Assembly: GCA_024695235.1 (NCBI GenBank)
Contig: JAILIP010000009.1
Span: 55,647-119,646, forward strand
Direction of reading: 5' to 3'
From: Bacilli bacterium
GTDB taxonomy: Bacteria > Bacillota_I > Bacilli_A > RFN20 > CAG-826
Length of the DNA stretch: 64,000 bases
How positions within the stretch are numbered: the first letter of the stretch is position 1; each line of letters begins with the position of its first letter. Shown here one piece after another: positions 19,069-41,324 of this stretch. A program made the translations under genes and the position numbers. The notes under the pieces are model-generated. The model searched no databases. It was not told where the DNA came from and was given only the letters and a program-made list of their open reading frames with translations.

Positions 19069-19144
19069 GGGCCTATAGCTCAGCTGGGAGAGCGCCTCGT
19101 TCGCAACGAGGAGGTCGCCGGTTCAATCCCGGTTAGGTCCACCA
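19069..19144 (+). tRNA. tRNA-Ala (anticodon CGC), CCA encoded
   Basis: 76-nt cloverleaf. The acceptor is GGGCCTA/TAGGTCC with the G3:U70 alanine identity pair. D arm GCTC..GAGC, anticodon stem CCTCG/CGAGG with loop TTCGCAA, T arm GCCGG-TTCAATC-CCGGT, and a terminal ACCA. Confidence 0.9.
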
Positions 19145-19609: not shown

Positions 19610-20050
19610 ACTCTTTAGTGATGGCAAACTACACAAACTCACAAAAAGGAATTCATGAAGATAGAACGTACCCCATTAAGTTTCTCAGAAATTTGTTATT
19701 AAACGAGGATAACCGGTTGGAAAACAAAGAATTGCTGTTGTAGCAGTCTTTGCATCTGTTATTGTTAACTTCTATAACGAAATGAATAAAAGAAGAGAAG
19801 ATAGAACTCTTAAAAAGATTCTTAATGAAGTTGAGGAAATAGAAACTGAAAAAGCAAAAGAAGAGTCTAAAGAAAATTCACCGACTTAATATAAATATTA
19901 AACAACAATTAAAGAACCATTGTTTAGTTACTCTATGAACATGATATTTCATGTATCATAAAGTTGTATTCATTTGCTATTATTGATATAGTATTGTCAC
20001 GTGATAGTAAACATCATGACGTTAACTTAAAAAGTATTAGGAGAACATAT

Positions 20051-21067: not shown

Positions 21068-21069
21068 AT

Positions 21070-21633
21070 ATGGAAAAAGTAATTGGCAATTTTAAATTTA
21101 TAGAAACAAACATCAAAGATGTATTTGTGATTGAACCTAAAAAATATGGTGATAATCGCGGATATTTTATGGAAACATATAAACAAACTGATTTTGAAGA
21201 AGCAGGAATCAAATATAATTTCATTCAAGATAATCAATCAAAATCAAAAAGAGGAGTTCTAAGAGGTCTTCATTTTCAAACGAAACATCCTCAAGCAAAA
21301 TTGGTTAGATGTCTTGAAGGTGAAGTCTTTGATGTGTGTGTTGATTTAAGAAAAAATAGTCCAACTTATGGAAAATGGTTTGGTTTAATTCTTTCTGCTG
21401 AAAAAGGTAATATGCTAATGATTCCTCGCGGTTTTGCACATGGTTTTGTTGTAGTAAGTGAAACCGCTACATTTTGTTATAAATGTGATGAAGTTTATCA
21501 CCCAGAAGATGATGGAGGTATCATTTATAATGATCCTCAAATCGACATTAAATGGCCAGATGTTGGAGAATTACTTTTATCGGAAAAAGATCAAAAACAT
21601 CCAACACTAAAAGAAGCAAATATTACATTCTGA
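21070..21633 (+). CDS. rfbC: dTDP-4-dehydrorhamnose 3,5-epimerase
   Basis: 187 aa cupin with DNRGYFMETY, RGLHFQ and VPRGFAHGF-like motifs. Confidence 0.93.
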   Translation: MEKVIGNFKFIETNIKDVFVIEPKKYGDNRGYFMETYKQTDFEEAGIKYNFIQDNQSKSKRGVLRGLHFQTKHPQAKLVRCLEGEVFDVCVDLRKNSPTYGKWFGLILSAEKGNMLMIPRGFAHGFVVVSETATFCYKCDEVYHPEDDGGIIYNDPQIDIKWPDVGELLLSEKDQKHPTLKEANITF

Positions 21634-21637
21634 AAAT

Positions 21638-22522
21638 ATGTTAAGTAAAGATTCGAAAATAATTGTAACTGGTATAAGAGGGCAGCTTGGCTTTGATTGT
21701 TTAAGAGTGCTTGCCAAACGCGGATACACAAATGTTCTTGGAATAGATAAAGAAGAACTTGATATTACTGATGAGCAAGCTGTCATTTCTTTTATCAAAA
21801 AGGAAAAACCTGTTGCACTTATTCATAATGCCGCGTGGTCTGCAGTAGATAAGGCTGAGGAATTTCCTGAACTTGTTAATAAAGTAAATGCTCTAGGTCC
21901 TAAATATCTTGCGCAAGGTTGTAAAATGGTTGGAGCTAAGATGGTTTATATATCCACTGATTATGTTTTTGATGGACTTGGCGATAAACCATTTGAAGTT
22001 GACGCTAAAAGAAAAGGCTTATCAGTGTATGGTAAATCAAAAGCCGATGGTGAAAAGTATGTTGAAGAAGTTTTAAAAGAACATTTTATTGTACGCACAT
22101 CTTGGGCTTTTGGAATTAACGGTAATAACTTTGTTAGAATCATGCTTAACTTAGCAGATAATGGTAAAAAAGAACTCAATGTCGTATGCGATCAAATTGG
22201 TTCAGTTACATATACATATGATTTAGCAGAACTTCTTACCGATTTAATTGAAACAGATAAATTTGGAATTTATCACGCGACAAATGAAGGTTATATTTCC
22301 TGGGCAGACTTTGCAGAAAAGATATTCGCTTTAGCAGGTAAAGACGTCAAAGTTAATAAAGTGACCACAAAAGAATACCTTGCCTTAAATCCTGTTCAGG
22401 CAATTAGACCGCTTAATAGCAGACTAAGCAAAAAAGCTCTTGATAAAAATGGTTTTAAGAGACTACCAAATTGGGAAGACGCTCTTAAGCGTTATTTGAA
22501 AGAATTGGGTCGTTTAGCCTAA
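21638..22522 (+). CDS. rfbD: dTDP-4-dehydrorhamnose reductase
   Basis: 294 aa with IIVTGIRGQLG, ISTDYVFDG and YGKSKADGE motifs. Confidence 0.9.
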   Translation: MLSKDSKIIVTGIRGQLGFDCLRVLAKRGYTNVLGIDKEELDITDEQAVISFIKKEKPVALIHNAAWSAVDKAEEFPELVNKVNALGPKYLAQGCKMVGAKMVYISTDYVFDGLGDKPFEVDAKRKGLSVYGKSKADGEKYVEEVLKEHFIVRTSWAFGINGNNFVRIMLNLADNGKKELNVVCDQIGSVTYTYDLAELLTDLIETDKFGIYHATNEGYISWADFAEKIFALAGKDVKVNKVTTKEYLALNPVQAIRPLNSRLSKKALDKNGFKRLPNWEDALKRYLKELGRLA

Positions 22523-22637
22523 TTGATATTAGCAAACAATGAGGATAGAAATGATTTTCTATTCTTTTTTTATGTCTTATAATAAGTTGTCAAATATTGG
22601 ACGAAATTAATTTGTAAATAATTAAACGGAGCAGAAT

Positions 22638-23522
22638 ATGAAAGGCATTATATTAGCAGGCGGATCGGGTACACGCCTATACCCATTAACTAAAGTTACC
22701 AGTAAACAATTACTACCAGTTTATGATAAGCCAATGATCTATTACCCATTAGCAATTCTTATGCTAGCAGGTATTAGAGACATTCTCATTATTTCAACAC
22801 AAGAAGACACACCAAGATTCAAAGAACTTCTAAAAGATGGTTCCGATTTTGGTGTTCGTTTCTCATATGTTGTTCAACCATCACCAGATGGTCTTGCTCA
22901 AGCCTTCCTTCTTGGAGAAGAATTCATCGGTGATGATTCATGCGCAATGATTCTTGGCGACAACATCTTCTATGGTGACGGAATTAAAAAGAAACTTAGA
23001 GATAGTGTAGCAGCAGCTGAAAAAGGCTTTTCAACTGTTTATGGTTATTACGTCAACGATCCAGAACGTTTTGGTGTCGTTGAATTTGATGAAAACAACA
23101 ACGCAAAATCAATTGAAGAAAAACCAGCCAATCCAAAGAGTAACTATGCAGTTACTGGTTTATACTTCTATCCAAAAGGTGTTTCCAACATGGCTAAGAA
23201 AGTTAAACCAAGTCCTAGAGGTGAACTTGAAATTACTGATTTAAATGTTCTTTACCTCAAAGAAAAGAAACTATGTGTTGAACTTCTTGGACGTGGAGTA
23301 ACATGGCTTGATACAGGAACACATGAGTCCCTTGTTGATGCTTCTTTGTTTGTTAAAACAGTTGAAGATAAGATGGGTTTGAAGATTTCCTGTCCAGAAG
23401 AAATTGCCTATAAGAATGGTTGGATCAGTAAAGAACAACTTCTTAAAGAAGGCGAAAGCATGTCAAAGAATCAATATGGCAAACACTTACTAAATGTTGC
23501 TAACGGAAAGATCATGTACTAA
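22638..23522 (+). CDS. rfbA: Glucose-1-phosphate thymidylyltransferase
   Basis: [18 protein letters not shown]... with [11 protein letters not shown] and LEITD motifs. Confidence 0.95.
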
Positions 23523-23538
23523 TTCAAGGGTGAATTAA

Positions 23539-24684
23539 ATGAAAAATGTATTTATTATCGGTTCCAAAGGAATCCCTGCTAAGTATGGGGGATATGAAAC
23601 ATTCGTTGAATATCTTACCGCAAGAAAGATAAACAAAGACATCAAATACCATGTCGCTTGTTTAGCAAAAGACAATAACGAATTTGAACATAACGGAGCA
23701 AGATGCTTTAACGTTAAGGTTCCTAATATCGGTGCTGCTAAAGCCGTCTATTATGATATCTATGCTTTAAAAAGCATCATCAAATATGTCAAAGAAAATG
23801 ATATCAAGGATGCAATTGTTTTAATTCTTGCATGCCGTATTGGTATTGTCTTTAGAAAATATGTTAGAAAACTTCACGCCTTAGGTGTTGAAGTTATTGT
23901 TAATCCAGATGGTCATGAATGGAAAAGAAGTAAATGGCCATGGATTATCAAAAAATACTGGAAATATTCTGAACGCAGAATGATTAAATACACTGATAGA
24001 ATTATCTGTGACTCAGTCAACATCGAAAAATATATCCATGAAGAATATGGAAAATATAATCCAAAGACATCTTTTGTGGCCTATGGTTCGGATGTTGTTG
24101 AATTAAAGAAAAACACCGAACTATTCAAATCATGGGCCGAGAAGTTTGATCTTAAGAGTGATGAATACTATCTAGTCGTTGGTAGATTCGTTCCAGAAAA
24201 TAACTATGAGATGATGATCAAAGGCTATATGGCGTCAAACACTAAAAAGCCACTTGTTCTCATCACAAATGTTGAAAAGAACAAATTCTATGAACGTCTA
24301 CTCAAGTCCACTCAATTTGATAAAGATCCACGAGTGAAATTCGTTGGAACGGTATATGATCAAGCGTTGCTTCAAGAAATTAGATACAATGCTTTTGCAT
24401 ATATTCATGGTCATTCTGTTGGAGGCACAAACCCAAGCCTACTTGAAGGTCTTGCCTGCACCGATTTATCAATGCTATTTGATGTATCATTCAATCGTGA
24501 AGTTGGAGGAGATACAGCCCTTTACTTTGACTCAGCTGAATCGTTTACAAAACTCATTGAAGATTCTGAAAAACTAAGCAAAGAAGAAATCGCCAAATAT
24601 GCGAAGGCCTCAAGCCAGAGAATTAAAGACAATTATTCTTGGGAATCAATATGTTCAAAATACGAAGAGAGATTTTATGAGTAA
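23539..24684 (+). CDS. Glycosyltransferase with DUF1972-type N-terminus (rhamnosyltransferase-like)
   Basis: The N-terminus IIGSKGIPAKYGGYETFVE is characteristic of DUF1972/GT4 enzymes of rhamnose-polysaccharide loci, as recalled. It sits directly after rfbA. Confidence 0.7.
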   Translation: MKNVFIIGSKGIPAKYGGYETFVEYLTARKINKDIKYHVACLAKDNNEFEHNGARCFNVKVPNIGAAKAVYYDIYALKSIIKYVKENDIKDAIVLILACRIGIVFRKYVRKLHALGVEVIVNPDGHEWKRSKWPWIIKKYWKYSERRMIKYTDRIICDSVNIEKYIHEEYGKYNPKTSFVAYGSDVVELKKNTELFKSWAEKFDLKSDEYYLVVGRFVPENNYEMMIKGYMASNTKKPLVLITNVEKNKFYERLLKSTQFDKDPRVKFVGTVYDQALLQEIRYNAFAYIHGHSVGGTNPSLLEGLACTDLSMLFDVSFNREVGGDTALYFDSAESFTKLIEDSEKLSKEEIAKYAKASSQRIKDNYSWESICSKYEERFYE

Positions 24685-25813
24685 GAAAGTAATCCTAGTC
24701 GATCAAATCGCTAAAATAAGCTATAAGTATACATTCTCACTAGCAGAATGTCTAATTAAGCAAGGTGTTGATGTTCATCTAGTTTTAGACTTAAAAAAGA
24801 ATGATGAAGTAAATTGTAAAACTGATAGCATCTTCCTTACCGATGAGAAAAATGTCTCAAAAGTTAAGAAGGTTTTTAATCTCTTTTCTTCTTATAGAAG
24901 AATAAGACAAATTATCAAGGAAGAAAACATTGATATTCTTCACATTCAATGGATCAATTTCTCACCAATTGAATATCACCTTTTGAAGCGTATTGCTAAG
25001 AAGACAAAAATTGTCATGACAGTCCATGACATCCTTCCATTTAATGAGAAGGGATATGACAAACGTTATTATCGTAAGATTTATCATCTTCCAAGCAAAA
25101 TCATTGTCCAAGCAGACACAAACTACGATAGATTCAAAGAACTATTCCCAGAAGACATTGATAAAGTCACAATCATTCCTCACGGAAACTCCTTGAAGTA
25201 TGCTGATTTACATTCTCAAGATGAATCACGTGAAAAGATTGGCATCAATAAAGACTACTTCACTTTCCTCTTCTTCGGACAAATCAAGCAAATCAAAGGT
25301 GTTGATATTCTTCTAGAAGCCTTTGAAAAATTCCATCAAAATCATCCTGAATCACAACTTGTTGTAGCAGGTAAACTATGGTATGCCGAAGAAGGTGTCT
25401 ATGAAAAGATATTCAATAGAGATGGATATCCAAAAGAATTCCTTAAATGGGATGAACGTTTCATCGGTGATGAAGAAATTGGATATTACTACTCAGCTTG
25501 TGATGTCACAGTCCTTCCGTACAAAGATTTATATCAAAGTGGAGTTATCCAGCTTGCTTATGCATATAAGAAAGTTCCAATTGTTTCAAATCTAAAACCA
25601 TTCTTAGAAGTAGTGGACGAGAATTCTGGTTACATATTCGAAAACGAGAATGTTGACTCTTTAGTTGAGGCAATGGAAAAAGCATTCCAAAACAAAAAGA
25701 ACGCTGATAAACTCGTTGAAAACGGTATCAAGACGATTAAAGCTAAATACAATTGGGAAGATATCGCCAAAAAGATCATCGATGAATGTTACGATGAAAA
25801 AATACCCGAGTAA
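24677..25813 (+). CDS. GT4-family glycosyltransferase
   Basis: Start at ATG 24677 (MSKKVILVDQ...), overlapping the upstream stop by 8 nt. Two-Rossmann GT-B layout with FFGQIKQIKGVDILLEAF... in the C-terminal half. Confidence 0.7.
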   Translation: MSKKVILVDQIAKISYKYTFSLAECLIKQGVDVHLVLDLKKNDEVNCKTDSIFLTDEKNVSKVKKVFNLFSSYRRIRQIIKEENIDILHIQWINFSPIEYHLLKRIAKKTKIVMTVHDILPFNEKGYDKRYYRKIYHLPSKIIVQADTNYDRFKELFPEDIDKVTIIPHGNSLKYADLHSQDESREKIGINKDYFTFLFFGQIKQIKGVDILLEAFEKFHQNHPESQLVVAGKLWYAEEGVYEKIFNRDGYPKEFLKWDERFIGDEEIGYYYSACDVTVLPYKDLYQSGVIQLAYAYKKVPIVSNLKPFLEVVDENSGYIFENENVDSLVEAMEKAFQNKKNADKLVENGIKTIKAKYNWEDIAKKIIDECYDEKIPE

Positions 25814-25886: not shown

Positions 25887-27026
25887 ATGCAAAACTCAAA
25901 AGTTAAAAATGCTCTTCTTTATGGAGGAGTAAGCAAGGAAGAATACGAAAGAACAAAGCCTATTATCAATAGGACTAATCAAAAGATTTGGAAAATCTCA
26001 TCTGTTTTCTTTGAGATTCTCTTTTTAATTTTGTTCGTAGTTTCTTTAGTGACTCACCTTGCAATCGAAGACAAACCAGAGATATCAGAAATGTTCTTTG
26101 CCTACATGATTCCTTTTGGAGTCTTGTCATTTTACATGATAATCCTTGTCCTTGTTTTCCAAGGCGGATTCAAAAATAGTTCAAACGCATTACTTCCCCT
26201 TATTTATATTTCCATGGGAGTAATTCTAATATCGTTAGGTTCAATATCTATCTTTCTTGATGATGGTGTTAGTGGGGCAGCCTTTGTTGTCGCACTTATC
26301 ATTTTTCCGTTCTTTGTAACAGATAGACCTCTTAGATATATCATCTTTACCTTCTTAGCAGGAGTTATATATCTTTTACTTTCTTTATTTGTCAAAAAAG
26401 CATCTGTTGAATTAAAAATTAGAGATGTTATTTTAACAACGGCATCTATTCTTATTTCGATTTTCATCTCTATTGTTCTTAATATCACACGCGTTAGACG
26501 TAATGCGGATTTATACACACTTGAGTTACAAAGAGATACAGATGCCTTAACTTCTGTTAAAAACGTTAACGCTTATGACCGCAAAGTAGATGAACTTAAA
26601 GAAAAGATTCAAAACCATGCGGATGTTAGATTCGCAATCGTTATTTTTGATATCAACGATCTTAAATATATCAACGATAGTTATGGCCATCCTCAAGGTG
26701 ACCAACTCATCATTAGAACTGCAAAACTAATATGTGATGCTTTCAAGCATTCACCTGTCTATCGTATTGGTGGTGACGAGTTCGTCGCTATACTTGAAGG
26801 AATAGATTACTCAAATAGAGAAGTACTCATTCGTCAACTTCATGAAAGAATAGATCAAATTCACCAAGAAGCTAAAACAAGAAAAGATGATACATCAGTC
26901 GCCTTTGGTGTTGGAATATTTAATCCAAAGAACGACTTTGATTACATCACAGTGTTCTCACGTGCAGATGCAGAGATGTACGATAATAAGCGCATTGTGA
27001 AGGCCAGAAATGCTCAAAAGAAATAA
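25887..27026 (+). CDS. Membrane-bound diguanylate cyclase (GGDEF domain)
   Basis: The N-terminal half has approximately 5-6 TM segments. The C-terminal domain has FDINDLKYINDSYGHPQGD and an intact RIGGDEF active site. No RxxD I-site was seen upstream of GGDEF. Confidence 0.85.
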   Translation: MQNSKVKNALLYGGVSKEEYERTKPIINRTNQKIWKISSVFFEILFLILFVVSLVTHLAIEDKPEISEMFFAYMIPFGVLSFYMIILVLVFQGGFKNSSNALLPLIYISMGVILISLGSISIFLDDGVSGAAFVVALIIFPFFVTDRPLRYIIFTFLAGVIYLLLSLFVKKASVELKIRDVILTTASILISIFISIVLNITRVRRNADLYTLELQRDTDALTSVKNVNAYDRKVDELKEKIQNHADVRFAIVIFDINDLKYINDSYGHPQGDQLIIRTAKLICDAFKHSPVYRIGGDEFVAILEGIDYSNREVLIRQLHERIDQIHQEAKTRKDDTSVAFGVGIFNPKNDFDYITVFSRADAEMYDNKRIVKARNAQKK

Positions 27027-27195: not shown

Positions 27196-27882
27196 ATGAA
27201 AAAATCAAAAATCGTCGTCCCAGCCGTTGCATTATTAGCTCTTGGTTTGGCCGCTTCTACAACTGCTACAGTTGCATGGTTCCAAGCAACATCAGCAGCT
27301 ACATTAACAGACAAATCAGCACCAGCAACAGTTAATGTTCAATCTTCTACTTATAGTGCAGGTGCATATTATGTTAAAGCAACTGCATCATTCTCACCAA
27401 GCGCAGCTCTTGATTATACTGATAAGAATGGCTCCACTTGGGTAATCGTTAATGGTTATTTAAGAACAGCCGCAGTTAAAAGTGCAAAATACGCATCAGT
27501 TACAATTGCAGTAAACTTCTATTCGAACGAAGCTTGTACACAAGCTGCTACTGTATCCGAACTCGCTGAAATTGGCGCCGCATTTAGTGGTTTAACAGTT
27601 ACAATCAACCCAGATGCAAACACAAGATTAACAACCAGTGATCCAAGTAGCAATTTTGCTACAGCTTTCGCTTCTAAATTGGATGTTAGTGATACGGTCA
27701 ATGTTACCTTAAGCTCTGCCGGCGCAGCTTCATATTCGAATAATACCCATTATGTCTCAGTTAATGGCGATGGTACAAGTGAAGTTGCAGATGCTCACGT
27801 TGATGGCGAAGCCGCCGCATCAGAATACACTACAGATGGCGGACTTACATTAACAATCGCTTCTACAGCAAGATCTGCTTAA
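27196..27882 (+). CDS. Small secreted Ala/Ser/Thr-rich protein with a SipW-cognate-like signal peptide; candidate major fibre subunit
   Basis: 228 aa. The sequence runs MKKSK, then a hydrophobic helix, then TATVAWFQATS. The mature part is A/S/T/V-rich with beta-strand-like alternation. SD AGAAAGGA lies upstream. The gene is monocistronic, with its own promoter and a strong terminator. Confidence 0.6.
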   Translation: MKKSKIVVPAVALLALGLAASTTATVAWFQATSAATLTDKSAPATVNVQSSTYSAGAYYVKATASFSPSAALDYTDKNGSTWVIVNGYLRTAAVKSAKYASVTIAVNFYSNEACTQAATVSELAEIGAAFSGLTVTINPDANTRLTTSDPSSNFATAFASKLDVSDTVNVTLSSAGAASYSNNTHYVSVNGDGTSEVADAHVDGEAAASEYTTDGGLTLTIASTARSA

Positions 27883-28426: not shown

Positions 28427-28450
28427 GCGAGCTCATACGGGCTCGCTTTT
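28427..28450 (+). terminator. Intrinsic terminator after the 28033 gene
   Basis: GCGAGCTC-atac-GGGCTCGC (8 bp, one G:T pair) followed by TTTT. Confidence 0.7.
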
Positions 28451-28485: not shown

Positions 28486-28515
28486 TTGAATACACGCATA
28501 TATACGTGATATATT
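28486..28515 (+). promoter_or_regulatory. Promoter TTGAAT-N18-(TGa)TATATT driving riboswitch 1 and operon 1
   Basis: -35 at 28486-28491 and an extended -10 TGATATATT at 28507-28515. The predicted start site lies at approximately 28522, at the 5' edge of the aptamer. Confidence 0.5.
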
Positions 28516-28521
28516 TAAATT

Positions 28522-28645
28522 AGCAAAAAGCAAAACCACAGTGATGTGGCGACGCAAAACTAAAGGGTCTTAATTAAGATAGCCAGTTGCCTAGAGGTTC
28601 TTATTGAACGCCACTAAATGGATGATAGGTAGCTGGCTTTTAAAA
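28522..28645 (+). promoter_or_regulatory. c-di-GMP-I (GEMM-I)-like riboswitch 1, aptamer plus terminator-type expression platform
   Basis: GCAAAACCACA-GUGA-UGUGGCGACGCAAAACUAAAGGGUCUUAAUUAAGAUAGCCAGUUGCC (28530-28591) has these features: a GNRA-capped hairpin, a GACGCAAA junction, a second hairpin with a CUAAAG/GAUAGCC receptor-like loop, and an AGCCAG-UUGCC closing. The 3' half (28581-28593) can instead pair with 28626-28638 in a 13-bp stem followed by UUUU. Confidence 0.7.
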
Positions 28646-28700
28646 AGAAATCTCATTGGGACAATAATAATCTAATACTAAACACTGGAAAGATTTTCTT

Positions 28701-29480
28701 ATGGTCGATTTAAGCTTTATTAGGAAACGTAAAGCTAAGAAAATCGTTGCACTAGTTGGCGGGTTATGTGGCGCTGCAGTAGTAGTTGTATCTGCTGTTG
28801 CCCTTTTGGGCCAAAGAGCCGCACCTTTAACTGTCAAGCTTACTAACAGTGGTGCATCATTAGCATTATTCAAGTCTGAATTCGAAAACGATCGTAAATC
28901 ATTCTTACTCGCTACTGATAGCAAACCATATACTGAAATAAGCGAACCCGCTTTACGCGCATATGAGAGCGTACTAGACGTGGATGATTCAAAACCTCTC
29001 CTCACATCGGATGAGCAATCACTCCAATTCTATCAATACACTTTCTATCTCACGAATAGTGGCGCAAGTGCAGCTGATTACACATTCAGCTTAAACATTT
29101 CCTATCCACACAGATCCAGCTTTGACTTAGCTGATGTTTTGCGTGTGCGCTTTTATGAGAATGACGGAAACGATAAGTTGACTCATAACTACAAGACTTA
29201 TGCCAAACACTCGGATATATATAATGCCGAAACAGGTGAATATGAACCTGAACGCATTTCTGGTAGTCAAAGTGAATTTGCTGAGAAGTTTGAAAATGCA
29301 AACACAGTTCTCACTCAAAACGTATCCGCTTTCCCTGCAGGAGCAGTCACACGTTACACAGTTGTCGTGTGGATTGAAGGTGAAGACCCACAAAGTAAAG
29401 GTCCAGCTCCAGTGGACTCTGGTATTGCTCTAGGAGTAAACATTAGTGCCCATGAAGCAGAGGAGACACCTCTCGAATAA
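28701..29480 (+). CDS. N-terminally TM-anchored or secreted beta-rich protein, TasA/camelysin-like candidate (paralogue group, WIEGEDP motif)
   Basis: 259 aa. A basic N-terminus is followed by the TM helix IVALVGGLCGAAVVVVSAVALLG, but with no AW[FY] motif. LTNSGAS occurs twice, like the N-G-S strand motif recalled from TasA. The C-terminal VVVWIEGEDP resembles VFVEGWDEH and QYIEGWDRD in the next two ORFs. Confidence 0.45.
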   Translation: MVDLSFIRKRKAKKIVALVGGLCGAAVVVVSAVALLGQRAAPLTVKLTNSGASLALFKSEFENDRKSFLLATDSKPYTEISEPALRAYESVLDVDDSKPLLTSDEQSLQFYQYTFYLTNSGASAADYTFSLNISYPHRSSFDLADVLRVRFYENDGNDKLTHNYKTYAKHSDIYNAETGEYEPERISGSQSEFAEKFENANTVLTQNVSAFPAGAVTRYTVVVWIEGEDPQSKGPAPVDSGIALGVNISAHEAEETPLE

Positions 29481-30495
29481 ATTATCTGCAACGCTTGCAG
29501 CGTCTATATTAGCCGTAGCACTCACAGGAGTTACCTGTGGGACTTTTGCTTGGTTTACGTACGAGACGCGCGCAAAGATTGAAGAATTTCAAGGAATTAC
29601 TATTGGAGTCGGTGATTTGCAAGTGGGTATTCTGTCAGAAGCATATTTAGATAGAGCTGAAGAATATGGTTTGATTAGAGATGAAAGTAATCCTAACGAA
29701 ACAATTTACTGGTTTGATGGTCATACCATGGAGAATGAAACAATTAACTATGTTTTAAGTTCAAACGGTTATGCCACAAATGCTTTGCATCCAGTAACTT
29801 CGCGTAAATATGTGACTGGTGATCCTCTCACCCTATATGCTGCTCCTGATTTTAAACCCGAAGAAGATGCCAAAGCATCAAAAGATGGTAGAATATTCTT
29901 GCCGTTAGTTTTTAAATACGAAGACATCATTGATGATAGTTTGATTTCAAATGAAAACATATTCCTGTCTGATGTAAAACTTTCAACGCCAAGCAGCGAT
30001 AGTTACATCCACAGGGCAGTTCGTGTTCATACGGATAACAAAAATAACAATCGTCATTTGATTAACCCAACAACAAGCGAAGATGGTTCTACTGGTGTTG
30101 GTGGTGTCTTAGATTTAAATAAAGACGGTTTTTATGATACCGAGGTTACAGGTAGCGACCTCCGAGAACATGTATATGGGCAAGCCGAGTTCCAATACAA
30201 AACTGAAGTAGAAACAGAGGACACTTTTGTTCCTATTGAACAAAGAACAACATTCAAAGCCGGGCATCTAGCAGGTGCCTATTCACTTGAATCGTGTACT
30301 CCTGAAAAAGCAGAGTATGAAGGTTTTTATGGCTTTAGGAATAAACGCAAATGGGTTGCAACTACAAATCCAGAGACGAACAACTATGCTTATCTAGACC
30401 TATCTGTATTTGTTGAAGGATGGGATGAACACGTCATCGATTCTGAACGAGATTTACCATTTTCCATGGAGTTGAAATTTGAAGTAGTATTCTAA
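29446..30495 (+). CDS. Secreted protein with a SipW-cognate-like signal peptide (paralogue A, DxNxDG loop, EGWD motif)
   Basis: The GTG at 29446 lies 9 nt after AGGAG; an alternative ATG is at 29452. The N-terminus is ...LAVALTGVTCGTFAWFTYETRA. It has GGVLDLNKDGFYD and ends with FVEGWDEH...SMELKFEVVF. Confidence 0.55.
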   Translation: MPMKQRRHLSNKLSATLAASILAVALTGVTCGTFAWFTYETRAKIEEFQGITIGVGDLQVGILSEAYLDRAEEYGLIRDESNPNETIYWFDGHTMENETINYVLSSNGYATNALHPVTSRKYVTGDPLTLYAAPDFKPEEDAKASKDGRIFLPLVFKYEDIIDDSLISNENIFLSDVKLSTPSSDSYIHRAVRVHTDNKNNNRHLINPTTSEDGSTGVGGVLDLNKDGFYDTEVTGSDLREHVYGQAEFQYKTEVETEDTFVPIEQRTTFKAGHLAGAYSLESCTPEKAEYEGFYGFRNKRKWVATTNPETNNYAYLDLSVFVEGWDEHVIDSERDLPFSMELKFEVVF

Positions 30496-30496
30496 A

Positions 30497-31561
30497 ATGA
30501 ATAAAAAACGTTTAGCAGCATTTGGAATAGCAATAACGGGTGTGATGTTAGTAGCATCTGTGGCTTTTACTGTTGCTTGGTACAATGGTTCATCTAATTT
30601 AGCAGTCTATAACTTCGACATTTCTCTAGGTGACAAGAAACTTACTATTTCCACAGATAATGTGAATTTCAAAGAAAACTTAACTAGAGATGATGTCAAA
30701 GACGCTATCCCGGAAAAATACAGGCCTGTTAGCAGTGCCTTCTCCAATGAATGGATAAGTCAAAAAGCAACCCTTCCGCAATTTACATCTGGTTACAACT
30801 ACATACCAGAAAAGGTGAATATGACATCAATTGATGATGTCAACAACGCTGATGATGGTGTATTCAGAAAAGTGTTATATCTCAAAAGTGATTCTTATGC
30901 AAAAGTATCTTTAGATGCAGAGAAAACTTACATTAACGCAGATAATGATTCAAATGAAAGCATTTCAGGAAAACTCAAAAAGGTATATCCAAACTTAACC
31001 AAAGAACAAATTGTGGAACAACTTAACAAAATTGAGAATTCACTTCGCTTCTCAATCCTTGTCTTAAATGATGATGGAAAAGAAGTTGATGATAGTGAAT
31101 ATCAATACACGATCGTGGATCCACATAAAAATGGAACCACAAAATTAGGTGGCATCTTGGATGCAGATGGCGACGGTTATTACGATAACGTCAATGGTAA
31201 AGAAGTCATTTATGGCGAAGTTAAAAACGCAAATGATGGAACCATCTCATATAAGAATGCTGAAGCAAACGATGTAGGGGAATCAGAGAATTGTTTTGAT
31301 TCCAAACATAAAGCCGGCGTCCAAGCCTTAGATTTTGAATCTTCAGAATCAAAAGGTATGGAAATAGTCGAAGAACACTCTTTATCCTTAGAGGAACTTA
31401 GTCAGTTCACCTTTACACTTCAGGCTGATGTCTCTAAGAAGATAGTGTTGTCCCAATATATTGAGGGTTGGGATAGAGATAGTGATAATTACACAATGTT
31501 TTCCCGTTTTGTCACTAGTATTTGTTTCAAACTAGCAGACGGGGGGAATGGAGGCAACTAA
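30497..31561 (+). CDS. Secreted protein with a SipW-cognate-like signal peptide (paralogue B, DxDxDG loop, EGWD motif)
   Basis: MNKKRLAAFGIAITGVMLVASVAFTVAWYNGSS, with GGILDADGDGYYD and YIEGWDRDSDNY...ICFKLAD. Its length and motif order match the 29446 ORF. Confidence 0.55.
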   Translation: MNKKRLAAFGIAITGVMLVASVAFTVAWYNGSSNLAVYNFDISLGDKKLTISTDNVNFKENLTRDDVKDAIPEKYRPVSSAFSNEWISQKATLPQFTSGYNYIPEKVNMTSIDDVNNADDGVFRKVLYLKSDSYAKVSLDAEKTYINADNDSNESISGKLKKVYPNLTKEQIVEQLNKIENSLRFSILVLNDDGKEVDDSEYQYTIVDPHKNGTTKLGGILDADGDGYYDNVNGKEVIYGEVKNANDGTISYKNAEANDVGESENCFDSKHKAGVQALDFESSESKGMEIVEEHSLSLEELSQFTFTLQADVSKKIVLSQYIEGWDRDSDNYTMFSRFVTSICFKLADGGNGGN

Positions 31562-31564
31562 AAT

Positions 31565-33091
31565 ATGTCAGCATATTTTCAATATTTAGGTGCAATGATT
31601 GTGGAATTTTTCAAAAACTTTGGAGGATTTTTTGCCGCAGGGTGGAAACTACTTCCAAGCCAATTTGAAAGATATAACGCAATATATAAAGCCTATTCAC
31701 CAGACTTTGGTGCTGGTGGATGGATAATGTGGGTTATTTTCCTCATTGTCTTTATAGGTGCAATTGGAGCACTCGGATTTGGAATTTATCTACTTCTCCG
31801 CAAATACATTAAATTTGCTAAGAAAGAAATTGAGAAGGATGAACTTCAAAGACAAATTGGTAGACTCAATTACGAGTTATATCAAATCATGCAAGAAAGA
31901 GATCGTATCTTAGATATGAAAGTTAAATCTCTTGGCATTGATAAAAAGATTGGACCAGAAGGAGAAGGTGGAGAGCCATCTGAAGATGAGCAAACAATCG
32001 AGGAACTTCAATCTAGATTCCCTAAATTAACTCACGTTGATAATCTCTATCGTGGAAAAGATAACGAAATTCCAGAAGTTGAAGGTCTCACATTAAAAGA
32101 TCTTTGTGAAAACTTCCGTAACTTCGCAGCATCTCAACTTGGTCTATACTATACCATCACAACTATCAGACAATTATTTGCTGGTATCGGTGCTGGTAAA
32201 CTCGTCATTCTCGAAGGTATTTCTGGTACAGGTAAAACTTCCTTACCATATGCTTTAGGTAAATTCTTTGCTCATGATGCTGAAATCTGTTCAGTTCAAC
32301 CTAACTGGAAAGATAGATCTGAACTTCTTGGTTACTACAACGAATTTACTAAGAAATTTAATGAATCCGAATTCTTACGCGCGCTATATACTACTTTATA
32401 TAGAAGAGATTTAAATATCATCGTCCTCGATGAAATGAACCTTGCCCGTGTTGAATATTACTTTGCTGAATTCTTATCCGTTTTGGAAATGCCTAATCCA
32501 AATGAATGGAACATTGAACTTATCGGTTCACATGATGAAAACGATCCAAAACAATTCAAGAATGGCAAAATCAAAATCCCTCAAAACGTTATCTTCTTTG
32601 GAACAGCCAATAACGATGACTCAACCTTTACAATCTCCGATAAGGTTTACGACCGTGCTATTTGCTTGTTCTTCGATAACAAAGGTATTCCATTTGAAGC
32701 TCCATTCCAAGCTCCAATGGTTGTACCATATACACAAATGCAAAGACTATTTGATGAAGCTGACGCCAAATATCCTTGCAGTGAAGATACATTAATGAAA
32801 TTTGCTGAACTAGACGACTTCGTTATTAAGAAATTCCGTCTTGCATTCGGTAACCGTATCTTAAAACAACTCAAGAAATTCGTTCCATGCTTTGTTGCCT
32901 GCGGTGGAACAGAACTTGACGCAATTGACTTTATCTTTACAAACAAGATTCTTAAGAAGTTTGAATCCCTTAACATCGGATTCTTGAAAGTAGAGCTCAA
33001 AGAGCTCAATGCTATGCTTGATAGACTTTTCGGAGCCGATAATTTCCCAATGGCTCACAAGTTTGTCAATAACTTAATTAGAATGGCTTAA
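31565..33091 (+). CDS. Membrane-anchored McrB-like AAA+ (AAA_5/dynein-related clade) NTPase
   Basis: It has one TM segment (WIMWVIFLIVFIGAIGALGFGIYLLL) followed by a basic stretch and a coiled coil. The NTPase core has Walker A GISGTGKTS, SVQPNWKDRSELLGYYN, Walker B plus signature IIVLDEMNLARVEYYFAEFLSVLE, and FFGTANNDDSTFTISDKVYDRA. SD GGAGG lies upstream. Confidence 0.65.
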   Translation: MSAYFQYLGAMIVEFFKNFGGFFAAGWKLLPSQFERYNAIYKAYSPDFGAGGWIMWVIFLIVFIGAIGALGFGIYLLLRKYIKFAKKEIEKDELQRQIGRLNYELYQIMQERDRILDMKVKSLGIDKKIGPEGEGGEPSEDEQTIEELQSRFPKLTHVDNLYRGKDNEIPEVEGLTLKDLCENFRNFAASQLGLYYTITTIRQLFAGIGAGKLVILEGISGTGKTSLPYALGKFFAHDAEICSVQPNWKDRSELLGYYNEFTKKFNESEFLRALYTTLYRRDLNIIVLDEMNLARVEYYFAEFLSVLEMPNPNEWNIELIGSHDENDPKQFKNGKIKIPQNVIFFGTANNDDSTFTISDKVYDRAICLFFDNKGIPFEAPFQAPMVVPYTQMQRLFDEADAKYPCSEDTLMKFAELDDFVIKKFRLAFGNRILKQLKKFVPCFVACGGTELDAIDFIFTNKILKKFESLNIGFLKVELKELNAMLDRLFGADNFPMAHKFVNNLIRMA

Positions 33092-33095
33092 TTAA

Positions 33096-35021
33096 ATGGC
33101 TAAACAATCATCAAGCAAATATCGAAAATTAGAAAGAAGCTATGCTTCAAAATCTAAAAAACTTTATTCATCAAATGATGGTAAAGAACTTTTAGATATC
33201 ATTTCTAGTGGTCGCAATAAGTATTTAAGATTAGATCGATTTGAATCATCCGCGATGGATATGACATGGATTAAACAAATCGAAGATTGTATTGATCCTT
33301 TAGGTGATATTGTTAATAACCCTAAAAAGACAATCCAAACTCTTACAGAGGTTGTACAAGTTGAGAAAGTCAAAAAGATTGGCATTGAAACAGTTCAACA
33401 TCTTTCAAGTCACACCCAATTTATTAAGACGATTGATGAAAATGGTGATGTCACTCCATCAAAACTTCTCAACGTCTACAATGATGACTTCTATGCGATT
33501 TATGAAAATAGATTCATTGCAACATTAATTCGCCATCTATTGATATTTGTTGAAAAACGTTATCAATTCGTTTTGCAAAACGCTACTCTATCTGACGTTG
33601 GAGTTCTTTATATGAAGAACCATACTGAACACGATGGAGCAGTCATCGATATTGAAACAAAAGTAAGATATTCACGTCCTGCTGAAGCAGTTGCTATTGA
33701 TAAACTAAAAGGATATCTCAAACGTATCGAAGATATTCGTAAATATCTAAAGTTCTATGCGAACACAGAATTTATGAAGATTCTCCGTCGTGAAAGAGAC
33801 GTCCGTAACCCAATCTTGCAGACAAACATTATTCGTAAGAACCCTAAGTATCATAAATGTTACTTACTCTGGCTATTTATCAATCGCTTTAAAGAAGCAG
33901 GAATTGAAGTTAAAGTCGAAGAAAACTATTCAGAACTTTCTGAAGAACAAATTCGTGAGATCAACGAAACTATGTGTTCATCGTTCCTCCTATTAAGAGG
34001 AAAAGACATGTCTCCTAGAACTGAAAAGTCCAAGAAGGCATATAAACCAGTCTTCATGAAGACATACGATGATGAAATCTATAAACCAATGGACTACAAA
34101 GGTCCAATTGAATATATCCGTGTTGATGATAAGTATCGCGAATACTCTGAATCTTTACATGTGGTTGAACCACACCCAACCAAGCAACGAAAAGCATACG
34201 ACAAAGAAAAATATGACGACAATAAAGCTCGTCGTGTTAAGAAAGCAGAGGTCGATGCTTTGCTAAAACGTAAAGAAAAAGAAAAAGCTATATATGAAGA
34301 GAACGAGAAACTTGCACTCGAACGCGAGATTGCGCGTGATAAATATGTAGAAGAAAAAGCAGAACAAGAAATCCGTGAAGAAGCTATTGCTAAAGTTGAA
34401 AAAGCACGTGAAAAACTTGTTGGTAAAGCTAATAAGGCTAAACCTGCTCCTAAGAAGAAAGTAGTAGAAAAGAAACAACCTAAGAAAGCTCCTGCCAAGA
34501 AGGCCGAACCTAAAAAGAAACCAGTCAAGAAGGCTGAGCCAAAGAAACAGCCTGTTGAAAAAGCAGAACCTAAGAAGGAAAAACCGGCTAAAAAAGTTGA
34601 GAAAAAAGTCGAAAAGAAGCCTGTTAAGAAGGTAGAGAAAAAGGTTGAACTAAAACCTGCTAAGAAGCCAGTTGTTCAAAAGAAAGAATCTAAACCAAAA
34701 GAGGCTCCTAAAAAAGCACCGGTAAAGAAGGAAACACCTAAAAAGGTGGCTAAACCAAAACCAGCGCCTAAAAAAGAAGAGCCAAAGAAGGTTGAAGAAC
34801 CAAAACCTAAGGTAGAAAAACCTGTTGAAGCTAAACCAGTTGAACCTGTCAAAGTGGTGGAACCTCCAAAAGAGGAAAAACCAGTTGAACAACCTAAACC
34901 GGTAGAAGCTCCGAAGGTTGAGCCAAAACCTGCTCCAAAGAAAGCTCCTAAACCAAAAGCGAAGAAAGAAAAACCTGAAACTTTCGCTAAGCTTTCATCA
35001 TTTAGAAGCAAGATTAAATAA
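33096..35021 (+). CDS. McrC/DUF2357-like partner protein lacking an obvious nuclease domain, with a coiled coil and a Lys/Pro-rich tail
   Basis: 641 aa with no TM segment. The central segment YAIYENRFIATLIRHLLIFVEKRY...NPKYHKCYLLWLFINRF resembles the ENRF-type core recalled from McrC-family partners of McrB-like NTPases. It is translationally coupled to the AAA+ gene (4-nt gap). The C-terminal approximately 230 aa are low complexity. Confidence 0.45.
   Translation: MAKQSSSKYRKLERSYASKSKKLYSSNDGKELLDIISSGRNKYLRLDRFESSAMDMTWIKQIEDCIDPLGDIVNNPKKTIQTLTEVVQVEKVKKIGIETVQHLSSHTQFIKTIDENGDVTPSKLLNVYNDDFYAIYENRFIATLIRHLLIFVEKRYQFVLQNATLSDVGVLYMKNHTEHDGAVIDIETKVRYSRPAEAVAIDKLKGYLKRIEDIRKYLKFYANTEFMKILRRERDVRNPILQTNIIRKNPKYHKCYLLWLFINRFKEAGIEVKVEENYSELSEEQIREINETMCSSFLLLRGKDMSPRTEKSKKAYKPVFMKTYDDEIYKPMDYKGPIEYIRVDDKYREYSESLHVVEPHPTKQRKAYDKEKYDDNKARRVKKAEVDALLKRKEKEKAIYEENEKLALEREIARDKYVEEKAEQEIREEAIAKVEKAREKLVGKANKAKPAPKKKVVEKKQPKKAPAKKAEPKKKPVKKAEPKKQPVEKAEPKKEKPAKKVEKKVEKKPVKKVEKKVELKPAKKPVVQKKESKPKEAPKKAPVKKETPKKVAKPKPAPKKEEPKKVEEPKPKVEKPVEAKPVEPVKVVEPPKEEKPVEQPKPVEAPKVEPKPAPKKAPKPKAKKEKPETFAKLSSFRSKIK
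34435..34980 (+). repeat. Lys/Pro/Glu/Val-rich low-complexity coding repeats (imperfect KKxEPKK / PKxxEKPVE units)
   Basis: The translated tail reads KPAPKKKVVEKKQPKKAPAKKAEPKKKPVKKAEPKKQPVEKAEPKKEKPAKKVEKKVEKKPVKKVEKKVELKPAKKP...EPKPKVEKPVEAKPVEPVKVVEPPKEEKPVEQPKPVEAPKVEPKPAPKKAPKPKAKK. The spurious antisense ORFs at 34094-35011 are by-products of this composition. Confidence 0.85.
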
Positions 35022-35026
35022 ATTAT

Positions 35027-35794
35027 ATGAGTGAGGAAAAATTAGAAGTAGTCGATAAACCAAAAAAAGACAAAAGCAAAGGTAAGAAGATTAAATCCAT
35101 TGTTGAATGGACCATTATTGGAATCTTCATTAGTGCTGCGTTAGTCTTGGTAGGTTTTAAGATTTACTCAAGCAAGACAAACAAGTCAATGTTTGGTTCA
35201 CAATATCCAGTCGTTCTTACTGACTCAATGGAACCAGACTACAAGGTTAAAGACGTATTGGTAGTAAAAGAAGTTGATCCCGCAGTACTTAAAGAAGGCG
35301 ATGATGTTACCTTCTATTGGGATTTAACTGGTAAAGGTGATGTTTATCCGATGACCCATAGGGTCAAGTCCATTGAATACTTCGCAAATGCCGAAGAAAA
35401 CGATGGATATCACTATACAATCATCACTCATGGTATCAATACCAAATCAAACCAATGTGGTAAGCCTGAAGGATGCGACATGACGTGGCAAACTCAAACA
35501 TTTCACGAAGATGCCCTCATTGGAAAAGTGGTTAGAAAAAGTTGGTTCTTGAAATTTGTTACTTCTGTTTGGGGATTGATTCTTTTAATTCTTCTGCCGT
35601 GTCTATACATCATGACTACAACTGTTGTAGATGCGTTCAAGAAGCTTGAAGAAGCCGATAAAGAAGCAGAACTTACTACTGTGGGCGTTGGAGAAAAACC
35701 AGATAATGATCCACTTGCAGGACTATCTGAAAATGATATTGAAGCCCTTAAGAAACAGATGCTTGATGAGATGTTAAATAAAGGAAAGAAATAG
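35027..35794 (+). CDS. SipW-like (archaeal/ER-type, S26B) signal peptidase I
   Basis: It has an N-terminal TM segment, the catalytic Ser box VVLTDSMEP, the His box PMTHRV, and a C-terminal TM segment (VWGLILLILLPCLYIMTTTVV). This is the same architecture as B. subtilis SipW as recalled (LSGSMEP/THRI), plus N- and C-terminal charged extensions. Confidence 0.75.
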   Translation: MSEEKLEVVDKPKKDKSKGKKIKSIVEWTIIGIFISAALVLVGFKIYSSKTNKSMFGSQYPVVLTDSMEPDYKVKDVLVVKEVDPAVLKEGDDVTFYWDLTGKGDVYPMTHRVKSIEYFANAEENDGYHYTIITHGINTKSNQCGKPEGCDMTWQTQTFHEDALIGKVVRKSWFLKFVTSVWGLILLILLPCLYIMTTTVVDAFKKLEEADKEAELTTVGVGEKPDNDPLAGLSENDIEALKKQMLDEMLNKGKK

Positions 35795-35795
35795 T

Positions 35796-37331
35796 ATGAA
35801 AAACAAATTGTATGCAAAACCTAAACAACTATTGGTGATTTCATCGATCGTTTTCGTGCTGGTTTTAGCAGCATCTGTTGTTTTATTCGTGCTTGGTTTC
35901 TTTACCGAACTCCCATTTATTGCATATATTTCCTTCGTGTTGTTACCACTCGCAGGTGCGTTCTTACTATTTTCAATTTTAAATTATGCGAAGAATGACA
36001 ATATGCTAAGAACACTTCAAATTGAAAACCAATATCAACTTGGCATCGGAAACTATTTCTTCAATTATCAAATGTTCTCTGAACGAGTAAAAAAATTACG
36101 TCGTAAACATGATCTTGATAAGACATATGTTATCGCATTCTCTGTATATAACATCCTCAGTAGTGGAACCATATCTTCATATCAAAGAAGATTGAATGGT
36201 TATATTGCATCATTTATTGGGGCAAAGGTTTTCCAAACCAAGATGGTAAACCCAAATGATATTGCTTTCTGTTTCCATAGAAACGTATTCATCGTGTATT
36301 CCTTTATGGATTTAGATAAGACTCGTGAATTAATCGAGATACTCCGTAAAGCAATATATGAAATCGTTAAAGAAAAGGAACTCAAAGTATTTGTTCAACC
36401 ACATTTTGGTGTTGCAGAAATTCTTCCTACAACAGACATTATCGTTGGAGTGGATAATGCCATCTTTGCTCGTAACGTAGATGAAAGAAACTTTGAAGAA
36501 TTGACATTCTACAAAGATGACTTCCGCGTCGAAACAAATAAAGATGAGATCGAAGAAATTAGAGATGCATTAAAGAACAATGAATTTGTTGTCTACTATC
36601 AACCAAAGTTTGATGTATCCAAAAAGAAATTTGTTGGCTTTGAAGCTCTTATTAGATGGAATTCACCTAGATATGGTTTACTCCTTCCGGGAAGATTTAT
36701 TGAAAAAGCTGAAATCGGTGGTCTAATCCATGAATTAGATATGTTCGTTCTTAGACAAGTTATTAAGGATTTAGAAAACCTTAAAGCAAGAAACATGAAT
36801 TTACTTCCTGTTTCTGTTAACTTCTCATTATATGAATTCTATTCCTCAGCATTTTTAACAGAATTAATTGAACTTATTGATAGATCTGCTTTAAAGCCAG
36901 AACTTATTGAAATTGAAATTACCGAAACTACAACCCAAGCCAATACATTCATGGCTACATCGATTCTTAATCGTCTCCGTAATCACGGACTCAAGATTTT
37001 AATGGATGATTTTGGAAGTGGATTCTCAAATCTTCTCCAACTTAATTCATTACCATTTGATGCAGTTAAGATTGATAAGTGCCTTATTGATGGAGTTGCC
37101 TCTGATCCTAAGACAAAAGAAATCGTTAAACTTGTTATTGGTTTATGCAAAGCCAATCAACTAGGCATTGTTGCAGAAGGTGTTGACTCCAAAGAAAAAG
37201 TCGATGTCTTAACCAAAATGGGTTGTGATGTCATCCAAGGATTCTACTATTCTGAACCTCTATCTCTATTAGAGGCCCTAGAATTTTTAGATGACAATCC
37301 GTTCACCAAGAAAGGAGGAAGTAAGAAATGA
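35796..37331 (+). CDS. Membrane-anchored c-di-GMP phosphodiesterase (degenerate GGDEF plus intact EAL)
   Basis: It has two N-terminal TM segments. The GGDEF-like domain has HRNVF in place of GGDEF. The EAL domain has all hallmark motifs: FEALIRW, VNFS, EIEITE, DDFGSGFS, KIDK, AEGVD and QGFYYS. Confidence 0.8.
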   Translation: MKNKLYAKPKQLLVISSIVFVLVLAASVVLFVLGFFTELPFIAYISFVLLPLAGAFLLFSILNYAKNDNMLRTLQIENQYQLGIGNYFFNYQMFSERVKKLRRKHDLDKTYVIAFSVYNILSSGTISSYQRRLNGYIASFIGAKVFQTKMVNPNDIAFCFHRNVFIVYSFMDLDKTRELIEILRKAIYEIVKEKELKVFVQPHFGVAEILPTTDIIVGVDNAIFARNVDERNFEELTFYKDDFRVETNKDEIEEIRDALKNNEFVVYYQPKFDVSKKKFVGFEALIRWNSPRYGLLLPGRFIEKAEIGGLIHELDMFVLRQVIKDLENLKARNMNLLPVSVNFSLYEFYSSAFLTELIELIDRSALKPELIEIEITETTTQANTFMATSILNRLRNHGLKILMDDFGSGFSNLLQLNSLPFDAVKIDKCLIDGVASDPKTKEIVKLVIGLCKANQLGIVAEGVDSKEKVDVLTKMGCDVIQGFYYSEPLSLLEALEFLDDNPFTKKGGSKK

Positions 37332-41124: not shown

Positions 41125-41144
41125 TTTAAATGATTATCTGAATG

Positions 41145-41167
41145 AGTAGGCTTATTGCCTACTTTTT
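41145..41167 (+). terminator. Intrinsic terminator ending operon 1
   Basis: AGTAGGC-ttatt-GCCTACT followed by TTTTT. Confidence 0.8.
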
Positions 41168-41308: not shown

Positions 41309-41324
41309 ATACTTGAACTTGATA

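Follow-up and report, generated by a model that had tools for sequence, protein, structure and literature searches.

A class I riboswitch for cyclic di-GMP (c-di-GMP; the GEMM-I family) probably stands at the 5′ end of the mRNA of a nine-gene operon in an uncultured Bacilli bacterium, where it would act as a transcriptional ON switch. The operon lies in a window of 64,000 nucleotides (nt), by which we mean the whole stretch of DNA analyzed (GTDB lineage Bacteria; Bacillota_I; Bacilli_A; RFN20; CAG-826; GenBank assembly GCA_024695235.1, contig JAILIP010000009.1, positions 55,647 to 119,646 of the forward strand), and all coordinates below refer to it. A scan of the window with Rfam 15 at the gathering thresholds returned three matches: a tRNA, a c-di-GMP-I aptamer at 28519–28594 on the forward strand, and an aptamer of the same clan at 41318–41393 on the same strand. 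The aptamer at 28519 matches RF01051 (c-di-GMP-I) over the full model (1–87) with 57.7 bits and E = 1.1e-08, 22.7 bits above the gathering score of 35, which bears out the GEMM-I-like aptamer that an earlier note on this DNA had proposed from the letters alone. The elements on which that proposal was built (GCAAA, P2 with its GUGA loop, the junction, P3, and the closing GCC) were all found in place, and the whole leader is composed as follows:

28486–28515, forward strand: candidate sigma-70-type promoter, TTGAAT-18 nt-TATATT, with TG upstream of the -10 hexamer (consensus match only)
28519–28594, forward strand: c-di-GMP-I (GEMM-I) aptamer (RF01051 match, our own covariance model, covariation)
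28529, forward strand: equivalent of G20 of the Vibrio cholerae Vc2 aptamer, here A (cmscan alignment, model position 11, consensus G)
28530–28534, forward strand: GCAAA (read from the sequence)
28530–28555, forward strand: P2 helix, with closing pairs G28530-C28555 and C28531-G28554 and a stem of 28535–28540 with 28545–28550 (cmscan alignment, covariation)
28541–28544, forward strand: GNRA tetraloop GUGA capping P2 (sequence)
28551–28560, forward strand: junction GACGCAAAAC (sequence)
28556, forward strand: counterpart of Vc2 A47, which intercalates between the two bases of the ligand, here A (aligned column)
28558–28588, forward strand: P3 helix, 28558–28561 with 28585–28588 and 28565–28571 with 28576–28584, with an AG bulge at 28581–28582 (cmscan alignment)
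28589–28591, forward strand: closing GCC (sequence)
28590, forward strand: equivalent of Vc2 C92, the Watson-Crick partner of the second ligand guanine, which pairs with G28629 in the alternative fold (aligned column, folds)

The arms of the P2 hairpin read ACCACA and UGUGGC, and the P3 hairpin reads CUAAAGGGUCUUAAUUAAGAUAGCCAGU; in the GEMM-I family, the P3 region is the tetraloop receptor, into which GUGA may dock here. The aptamer is located in the 5′ untranslated region, 107 nt before the ATG at 28701, on the strand of the downstream genes, and the hairpin described below overlaps it. Transcription is predicted to start at about 28521–28523, at the 5′ edge of the aptamer; a TTGCA..TATACT-like pair is present in related leaders at the same distance from the aptamer, and the preceding gene is followed by a terminator at 28427–28446 that was rated good.

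RF03168 (c-di-GMP-I-UAU) scored 54.4 bits, below its gathering score of 65.9, and the window aptamer, with A/A/C at positions 20/47/92, matches the variant nucleotides of neither c-di-GMP-I-UAU nor c-di-GMP-I-GGC (RF03167), names that we take to stand for U/A/U and G/G/C at these positions. On such sequence grounds, membership in the GEMM-I family is secure. The aptamer is already detectable by standard annotation and belongs to a known family, the current understanding of which it leaves unchanged.

Conservation of the aptamer upstream of gene 1

The family of gene 1, the first gene of the operon, is small (39 clusters) and has no name. A profile search with gene 1, taking one genome per species, yielded 80 loci. 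Their genomes are all of uncultured Bacilli, Erysipelotrichaceae, or 'Bacillales', mostly from rumen and gut samples, and the protein identities range from 70% down to 26%. For the first 20 loci, Rfam places an RF01051 match close ahead of the gene-1 homologue every time (20/20). A covariance model built from these aptamers, which scores the window aptamer at 90.3 bits, found an aptamer upstream of the homologue in 77 of the 80 loci, the other three being cut by contig ends, and the synteny of aptamer and gene is kept down to about 26% protein identity.

Among 80 aligned aptamers, 95.6% of the cells are paired versus 84.8% in shuffled alignments, none of the 500 shuffles being as good, and pairing falls to 22–38% when the partner is slid by 1–3 columns. 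Changes on both sides occur at 11 of the 19 aptamer pairs and at all six pairs of the P2 stem; the P3 pairs are 92.7–97.6% paired, with compensatory changes at four of them. The P2 tetraloop is G-N-R-A in 80/80 aptamers, the A47 equivalent is A in 80/80, and the C92 equivalent is C in 79/79, and, at the position-20 equivalent, 68 of 79 related aptamers have A and the other 11 have G. Since the aptamer precedes the orthologous gene in nearly all loci and its base pairs covary strongly, the feature represents more than chance. The weak U-run and the short P1 of the window leader are the only features that would suit a chance resemblance or a decayed relic devoid of regulatory function. Such an origin is extremely improbable and is effectively refuted by the Rfam score, the synteny, and the covariation; the ligand-contact nucleotides, the A47 and C92 equivalents, are moreover invariant.

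A terminator-like hairpin competes with the aptamer

The 3′ strand of the aptamer is also one arm of a long hairpin:

28581–28641, forward strand: terminator-like hairpin with a 5′ arm at 28581–28593, a 32-nt loop containing two small hairpins, a 3′ arm at 28626–28638, and a U-run ending at 28641 (minimum-free-energy fold, repeat search)

An independent repeat search returned the 13-bp repeat at the place given in the earlier note, with 32 nt between the arms, AGCCAGTTGCCTA (28581–28593) and TAGGTAGCTGGCT (28626–28638). As RNA, 13 of 13 positions pair, including two G-U wobbles, and the hairpin is included in the minimum-free-energy fold of 28510–28660 (-38.4 kcal/mol, z = -2.78). Its 5′ arm is made up of the P3 3′ strand, C28590, and the P1 3′ strand, and the two folds, as had been claimed, are mutually exclusive: 28581–28593 is common to both, including the C92 equivalent. 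Considering secondary structure alone over 28519–28645, the fold with the hairpin has an energy of -35.3 kcal/mol versus -22.8 kcal/mol for the fold with the aptamer enforced. This difference of about 12.5 kcal/mol in favor of the hairpin suggests that the default state is OFF and that ligand is needed for the ON state.

The same arrangement is found in related leaders. In an ungapped search of 75 of them, most have a long, well-paired complementary arm 30–40 nt downstream, and at least 50 of the 75 have five or more T among the eight bases that follow the arm. The arms change in a compensatory way, as CCAGCUGCC/GGCAGCUGG in loci L004 and L030 and as CCAGGUGCC/GGCACCUGG in L072. The conservation of a complementary 3′ arm with compensatory changes, followed by a U-tract, supports an anti-termination reading, and the ON-switch architecture predicted earlier appears sound, as judged from the strand overlap and its maintenance among the relatives.

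According to this mechanism, in the absence of ligand, the strand 28581–28593 (P3 3′ side, C28590, and P1 3′ side) would pair with 28626–28638, and since the resulting 13-bp hairpin abuts a short U-run, RNA polymerase would tend to terminate near 28641. The second messenger, bound at the three-helix junction, would lock the strand into the aptamer; the hairpin would be blocked and transcription would run into the operon. Induction at high c-di-GMP would then deploy the surface proteins and at the same time exert a negative feedback on c-di-GMP, because the operon encodes an EAL phosphodiesterase that looks active. An ON logic with a terminator that sequesters the C92 equivalent has been established experimentally for the Geobacter pilM GEMM-Ib RNA (PMC9262584).

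Several points weigh against this reading. P1 is only 3–4 bp long and poorly supported in the alignment. The position-20 equivalent, A28529, carries the defining change of the cGAMP-selective GEMM-Ib RNAs (cGAMP, cyclic GMP-AMP). The U-run is UUUU followed by AAAAAG in the window and UUUUC in the two closest relatives (L081 and L082), a shortness that justifies the caution voiced earlier about this tract; the consensus terminator scan does not call the hairpin site, and termination efficiency in the window's sub-lineage is uncertain. Finally, an additional helix, H1, and two invariant motifs, all described below, are not required by the ON-switch model, and the mechanism may have an extra layer.

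Position 20 and the identity of the ligand

The window aptamer resembles Vc2 (RF01051) in its three helices, its P2 with a GNRA loop, its P3 with an AG bulge and receptor region, its GACGCAAA junction, and its A47 and C92 equivalents, as well as in its position in a 5′ untranslated region ahead of surface and c-di-GMP-turnover genes. It differs from Vc2 by the A at position 20, a short P3, a P1 of 3–4 bp, and a host from an uncultured gut or rumen lineage of Bacilli, Erysipelotrichaceae-like. With the Geobacter GEMM-Ib RNAs (Gs1761, pilM), it shares A20 and the ON logic, in which aptamer and terminator are exclusive and the C92 equivalent is sequestered (PMC9262584). Unlike them, it occurs in another phylum, in an operon with EAL domains, which are c-di-GMP-specific, and with no Hypr GGDEF/cGAMP synthase seen nearby; its decision window is also longer, with a structured loop of 32 nt between the arms. 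The Cbe 1-2 aptamer from Clostridium beijerinckii is likewise a Firmicute GEMM-I RNA with a natural A20 (PMC6140456), although its gene context is different, and by analogy it is most likely the functional analogue of the window aptamer.

The G20/A47/C92 ligand-contact set of Vc2 is only partly matched: A28556 and C28590 are kept, and the G20 equivalent is A28529. As this contact is an A, a point that the earlier note had missed, specificity for c-di-GMP is not guaranteed. In Vc2, G20 reads the first guanine of c-di-GMP, and the GEMM-Ib class, which senses cGAMP, is defined by an A there (PMC6140456). The Vc2 G20A variant binds both c-di-GMP and cGAMP (53 and 120 nM), and Cbe 1-2 binds c-di-GMP at 30 nM and cGAMP at 463 nM, with a protonated adenine (PMC6140456). 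In Geobacter, A20G alone flips the selectivity from cGAMP to c-di-GMP (PMC6456294). A20 is hence necessary for cGAMP selectivity but not sufficient (PMC6140456, PMC6456294). The A at position 20 lowers the claim to specificity and not that to family membership: A20 variants are placed in RF01051 and still bind c-di-GMP.

The genetic context favors c-di-GMP, for the operon has EAL domains, an Asp-type cyclase is encoded upstream, and the GGDEF proteins of related loci are of the Asp or Asn type and never Ser/Thr. Enzymes of the cGAMP-making Hypr group carry Ser/Thr at the base-specifying position of the GGDEF domain (PMC6456294). The only GGDEF protein of the window, a membrane protein encoded at 25887–27026, two genes upstream of the riboswitch, has an intact GGDEF motif with the canonical guanine-specifying Asp (GHPQGD) and is likely a local source of c-di-GMP. 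Among nine GGDEF proteins neighboring related leaders, the residue is D in seven and N in two, so that no Hypr (Ser/Thr) GGDEF was seen either in the 64-kb window or among these nine. We infer that the ligand is most likely c-di-GMP and that A20 here probably makes a sensor of lower, nanomolar rather than picomolar, affinity, possibly bispecific and allowing some binding of cGAMP.

It could be proposed instead that the aptamer physiologically senses 3′,3′-cGAMP, or is truly dual for c-di-GMP and cGAMP in a GEMM-Ib-like manner, the ON mechanics being unchanged. A28529, together with the conserved A28556 and C28590, makes the A-A-C signature of GEMM-Ib (PMC6140456), and the presence of A in 68 of 79 related leaders, with G in the second riboswitch of the window, suggests selection for a different response; in Geobacter, the single A20G change flips the selectivity (PMC6456294). 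However, A20 alone is not enough, as Vc2 G20A accepts both ligands and so does the natural Cbe 1-2, the latter with a 15-fold preference for c-di-GMP (PMC6140456); the EAL domains of the operon and the Asp-type cyclases nearby, with no Hypr GGDEF in the window or the nine related cases, argue in the same direction, and the validated selective GEMM-Ib members come from Geobacter and its relatives (PMC6456294, PMC9262584). The part of the genome inspected for a cGAMP synthase was the 64 kb of the window, and such an enzyme may be encoded elsewhere. Altogether, we regard cGAMP or dual sensing as unlikely and retain c-di-GMP as the most likely ligand.

A conserved module between the aptamer and gene 1

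Downstream of the aptamer, the related leaders share a helix and two short motifs:

28593–28655, forward strand: helix H1, in which about 28593–28607 pairs with the U-run and the sequence downstream of it, about 28637–28655 (duplex energies, enforced fold)
28620–28629, forward strand: invariant GGAUGAUAGG, the 3′ part of which is the top of the terminator 3′ arm (45 aligned leaders)
28657–28663, forward strand: invariant UGGGACA, just 3′ of H1 (45 aligned leaders)

H1 is predicted once the aptamer is enforced and forms only without the terminator stem. Over 45 loci, its cognate strands have a mean duplex energy of -12.1 kcal/mol versus -6.6 kcal/mol for non-cognate ones; in 17 of the 45 loci, no other strand pairs better than the cognate one, the median rank of which is 1. 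L081 and L082, the closest relatives, retain the helix; in the sub-lineage of the window, it has been preserved through a swap of the A-rich strand with the U-rich one, which shortens the U-tract. From the strand order a, b, a′, b′ with short linkers, we infer that a full-length H1 and a full-length terminator stem exclude each other. GGA, AU, and GG of GGAUGAUAGG and GGGACA of UGGGACA do not vary among the 45 leaders (45/45), and conservation is 90% or more at the remaining positions, namely U, G, and A in the former motif and the first U in the latter. A permissive Rfam scan of 28595–28700 for a known RNA family gave chance-level matches only. H1 and the two motifs could possibly form a second layer of control.

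These features raise the question of whether termination is the main control at all. The aptamer could be real and intrinsic termination, with so short a U-run, not the principal step, the alternative folds of the leader governing instead how stable the read-through transcripts are or how they are processed or translated: the first fold would have the terminator-like hairpin, and the second the aptamer with H1, UGGGACA being left exposed or hidden. The strong covariation of H1, its maintenance by the strand swap in a sub-lineage whose U-tract is truncated, the (near-)invariance of the two motifs in the 45 leaders, and the topological exclusion of H1 and hairpin that we deduce from the strand order would all agree with such a role, as would the many related leaders in which no clear Shine-Dalgarno sequence is seen and another hairpin precedes the AUG. 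On the other hand, most homologues carry a good U-tract directly after the hairpin, which argues for termination as the ancestral design, and two specific versions of the proposal, involving pairing of H1 with the start region or of UUGGGAC with P3, gained no support. Terminators with four U can still work with Nus factors. We therefore judge this explanation improbable, as we do cGAMP sensing, and keep anti-termination as the preferred mechanism.

These two versions and a third candidate role for sequences of the module were examined as follows; the first and the third were rejected, and the second was not supported. Pairing of the H1 3′ strand with the start-codon region (AAGAAAUCU with AGAUUUUCUU) is good in the window, yet over 43 loci the cognate pairs have no advantage over non-cognate ones (-6.75 versus -5.79 kcal/mol). 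Pairing of UUGGGAC with the freed P3 5′ strand (GUCUUAA), as a lock of the OFF state, is predicted in the minimum-free-energy fold of the window; it is weak (-5 to -7 kcal/mol), with no covariation where P3 reads GGGCC or GGGAC. As for an internal promoter, with UUGGGACA as a -35 element of sigma-70 or a -24 element of sigma-54, related leaders show no consistent -10 or -12 partner, respectively.

A second riboswitch and tandem variants

The second aptamer of the window stands downstream of the operon:

41318–41393, forward strand: paralogous GEMM-I aptamer with G at the position-20 equivalent (Rfam)

Clan competition in Rfam labels it c-di-GMP-I-GGC (60.7 bits versus 59); at the discriminating position, it reads GCAAAG and not GCGAAG, and it looks like a canonical c-di-GMP-I aptamer. 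By eye, it is about 87% identical to the aptamer at 28519, with about 10 differences over 76 aligned positions. The two are alike in the AGCCAGUUGCC strand that serves as the hairpin 5′ arm, in the GGCUUUUAAAAA tail, and in the ON design. The paralogue differs by its G20, by a compact 12-bp hairpin (41379–41390 with 41395–41406) with a loop of 4–6 rather than 32 nt, by the absence of the H1/UGGGACA module, and by its position ahead of two giant Big_3-type surface proteins. The second riboswitch (region 41318–41437) sits 45 nt before these two proteins, encoded at 41438–45220 (with a Big_3 domain) and 45232–49122, both of which have N-termini with the T-x-A-W-F/Y motif. In the minimum-free-energy fold of the second leader (41365–41425), the P3 5′ strand (GUCUUGAU) pairs with AUCAGUCAAGA, just upstream of a Shine-Dalgarno-like GAAAGG; this pairing, predicted from a single sequence, may add a translational layer in the OFF state.

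Some related leaders are more elaborate. In 12 of them (L035, L038, L042, L044, L045, L050, L053, L056, L058, L061, L076, and L079), a complete aptamer ending with AGCCAGCAACC is found about 250 nt upstream of the gene-1 homologue and runs into its own terminator (CCUCAAU...AUUGAGGUUUUAU). After this terminator, only the distal P3 and P1 3′ strand recurs (AAGAUAGCCAGUUGCC), ahead of the standard platform, so that a single 5′ half is in effect accompanied by two alternative 3′ halves and by two successive terminators; depending on the locus, our covariance model aligns to the one or the other 3′ half. In L015 (2700–2852), a sequence-pattern scan revealed tandem aptamers, both with A20, ahead of the gene-1 homologue, where Rfam and our covariance model each listed the second aptamer only (2773–2852).

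A broader proposal is put forward tentatively, and we hold it to be doubtful. The A20-type leaders of the gene-1 family would form a distinct subclass of uncultured gut and rumen Bacilli, in which the A/G difference between the two riboswitches of one locus sets either the ligand (cGAMP or dual versus c-di-GMP) or the c-di-GMP threshold; H1, GGAUGAUAGG, and UGGGACA would be an undescribed second layer acting on read-through transcripts, and the leaders with two 3′ halves would elaborate the same device.

The operon and its neighborhood

28701–41124, forward strand: nine closely packed genes in the same direction, which overlap slightly or are at most 5 nt apart (open reading frame coordinates)

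A terminator-like site follows the operon at 41144–41164. Genes 1–3 encode small secreted-protein candidates with no family match, and the hydrophobic N-terminal segments of genes 2 and 3 end with T-x-A-W-F/Y. Such ends resemble those of TasA/camelysin-type, SipW-dependent signal peptides, and no model confirmed this. The operon further comprises an AAA_5 ATPase (31565–33091) that matches the PADLOC candidate family PDC-M26A (E = 6.6e-40) and, weakly, McrB-like proteins; a 641-residue protein without assigned function; a protein distantly similar to archaeal-type/SipW-like signal peptidases that scores under the NCBIfam cut-offs; a membrane protein (gene 7) with an EAL domain (E = 1.5e-66) in which the EAL, ExxE, DDFGSG, EGVD, and QG motifs are intact; a protein similar to 5′-methylthioadenosine/S-adenosylhomocysteine (MTA/SAH) nucleosidases; and a membrane protein of 1015 residues with a degenerate EAL domain that has lost the catalytic motifs. 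An anti-phage defense operon was considered and rejected: the AAA_5 ATPase alone matches a PADLOC family, and no system is recognizable.

Searches of gene 1 against Pfam, NCBIfam, and PDB sequence profiles returned nothing, and a look-up of its exact sequence returned no record. Its AlphaFold model is a β-sandwich (predicted local distance difference test score, pLDDT, 79), for which Foldseek gave TM-scores (template modeling scores) of about 0.3 or below, the weak matches including the archaeal bundling pilin 7ueg and CFA/I pilins. The name "fibre operon" used in the earlier note is plausible but unproven. The distant SipW-like signal peptidase and the T-x-A-W-F/Y N-termini of genes 2 and 3 speak for it; no fiber family is matched, and the other genes encode the AAA_5 ATPase, the EAL phosphodiesterase, the nucleosidase-like protein, and the degenerate-EAL protein.

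Directly upstream of the riboswitch, 27196–27882 encodes a protein of 228 residues with no family match, the N-terminus of which ends with T-V-A-W-F, the signal-peptide-like motif also present in genes 2, 3, 10, and 11. The riboswitch-controlled genes are flanked at 19964–25813 and 50742–52978 by dTDP (deoxythymidine diphosphate)-rhamnose genes (rmlB, rmlC, rmlD, and rmlA-like), glycosyltransferases, a sugar transferase, and a Wzy-type ligase, and the tRNA lies at 19069–19141. From its gene content, the whole region is a chromosomal cell-surface locus.

Significance

The presence of an A20 signature together with a G20 paralogue in one locus, along with the conserved downstream module, gives the finding a modest extra interest. 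The pair of A20 and G20 GEMM-I aptamers, 13 kb apart and near a canonical diguanylate cyclase and an EAL phosphodiesterase, makes a compact natural system, usable for asking what role a natural A20 has outside Geobacter: the tuning of a threshold or the recognition of another ligand. H1 and the conserved motifs might indicate a further step of control. For the organism, the annotation would place the nine-gene surface-protein/phosphodiesterase operon and the neighboring giant-adhesin genes under cyclic-dinucleotide control, in an uncultured Firmicute lineage of the gut or rumen.

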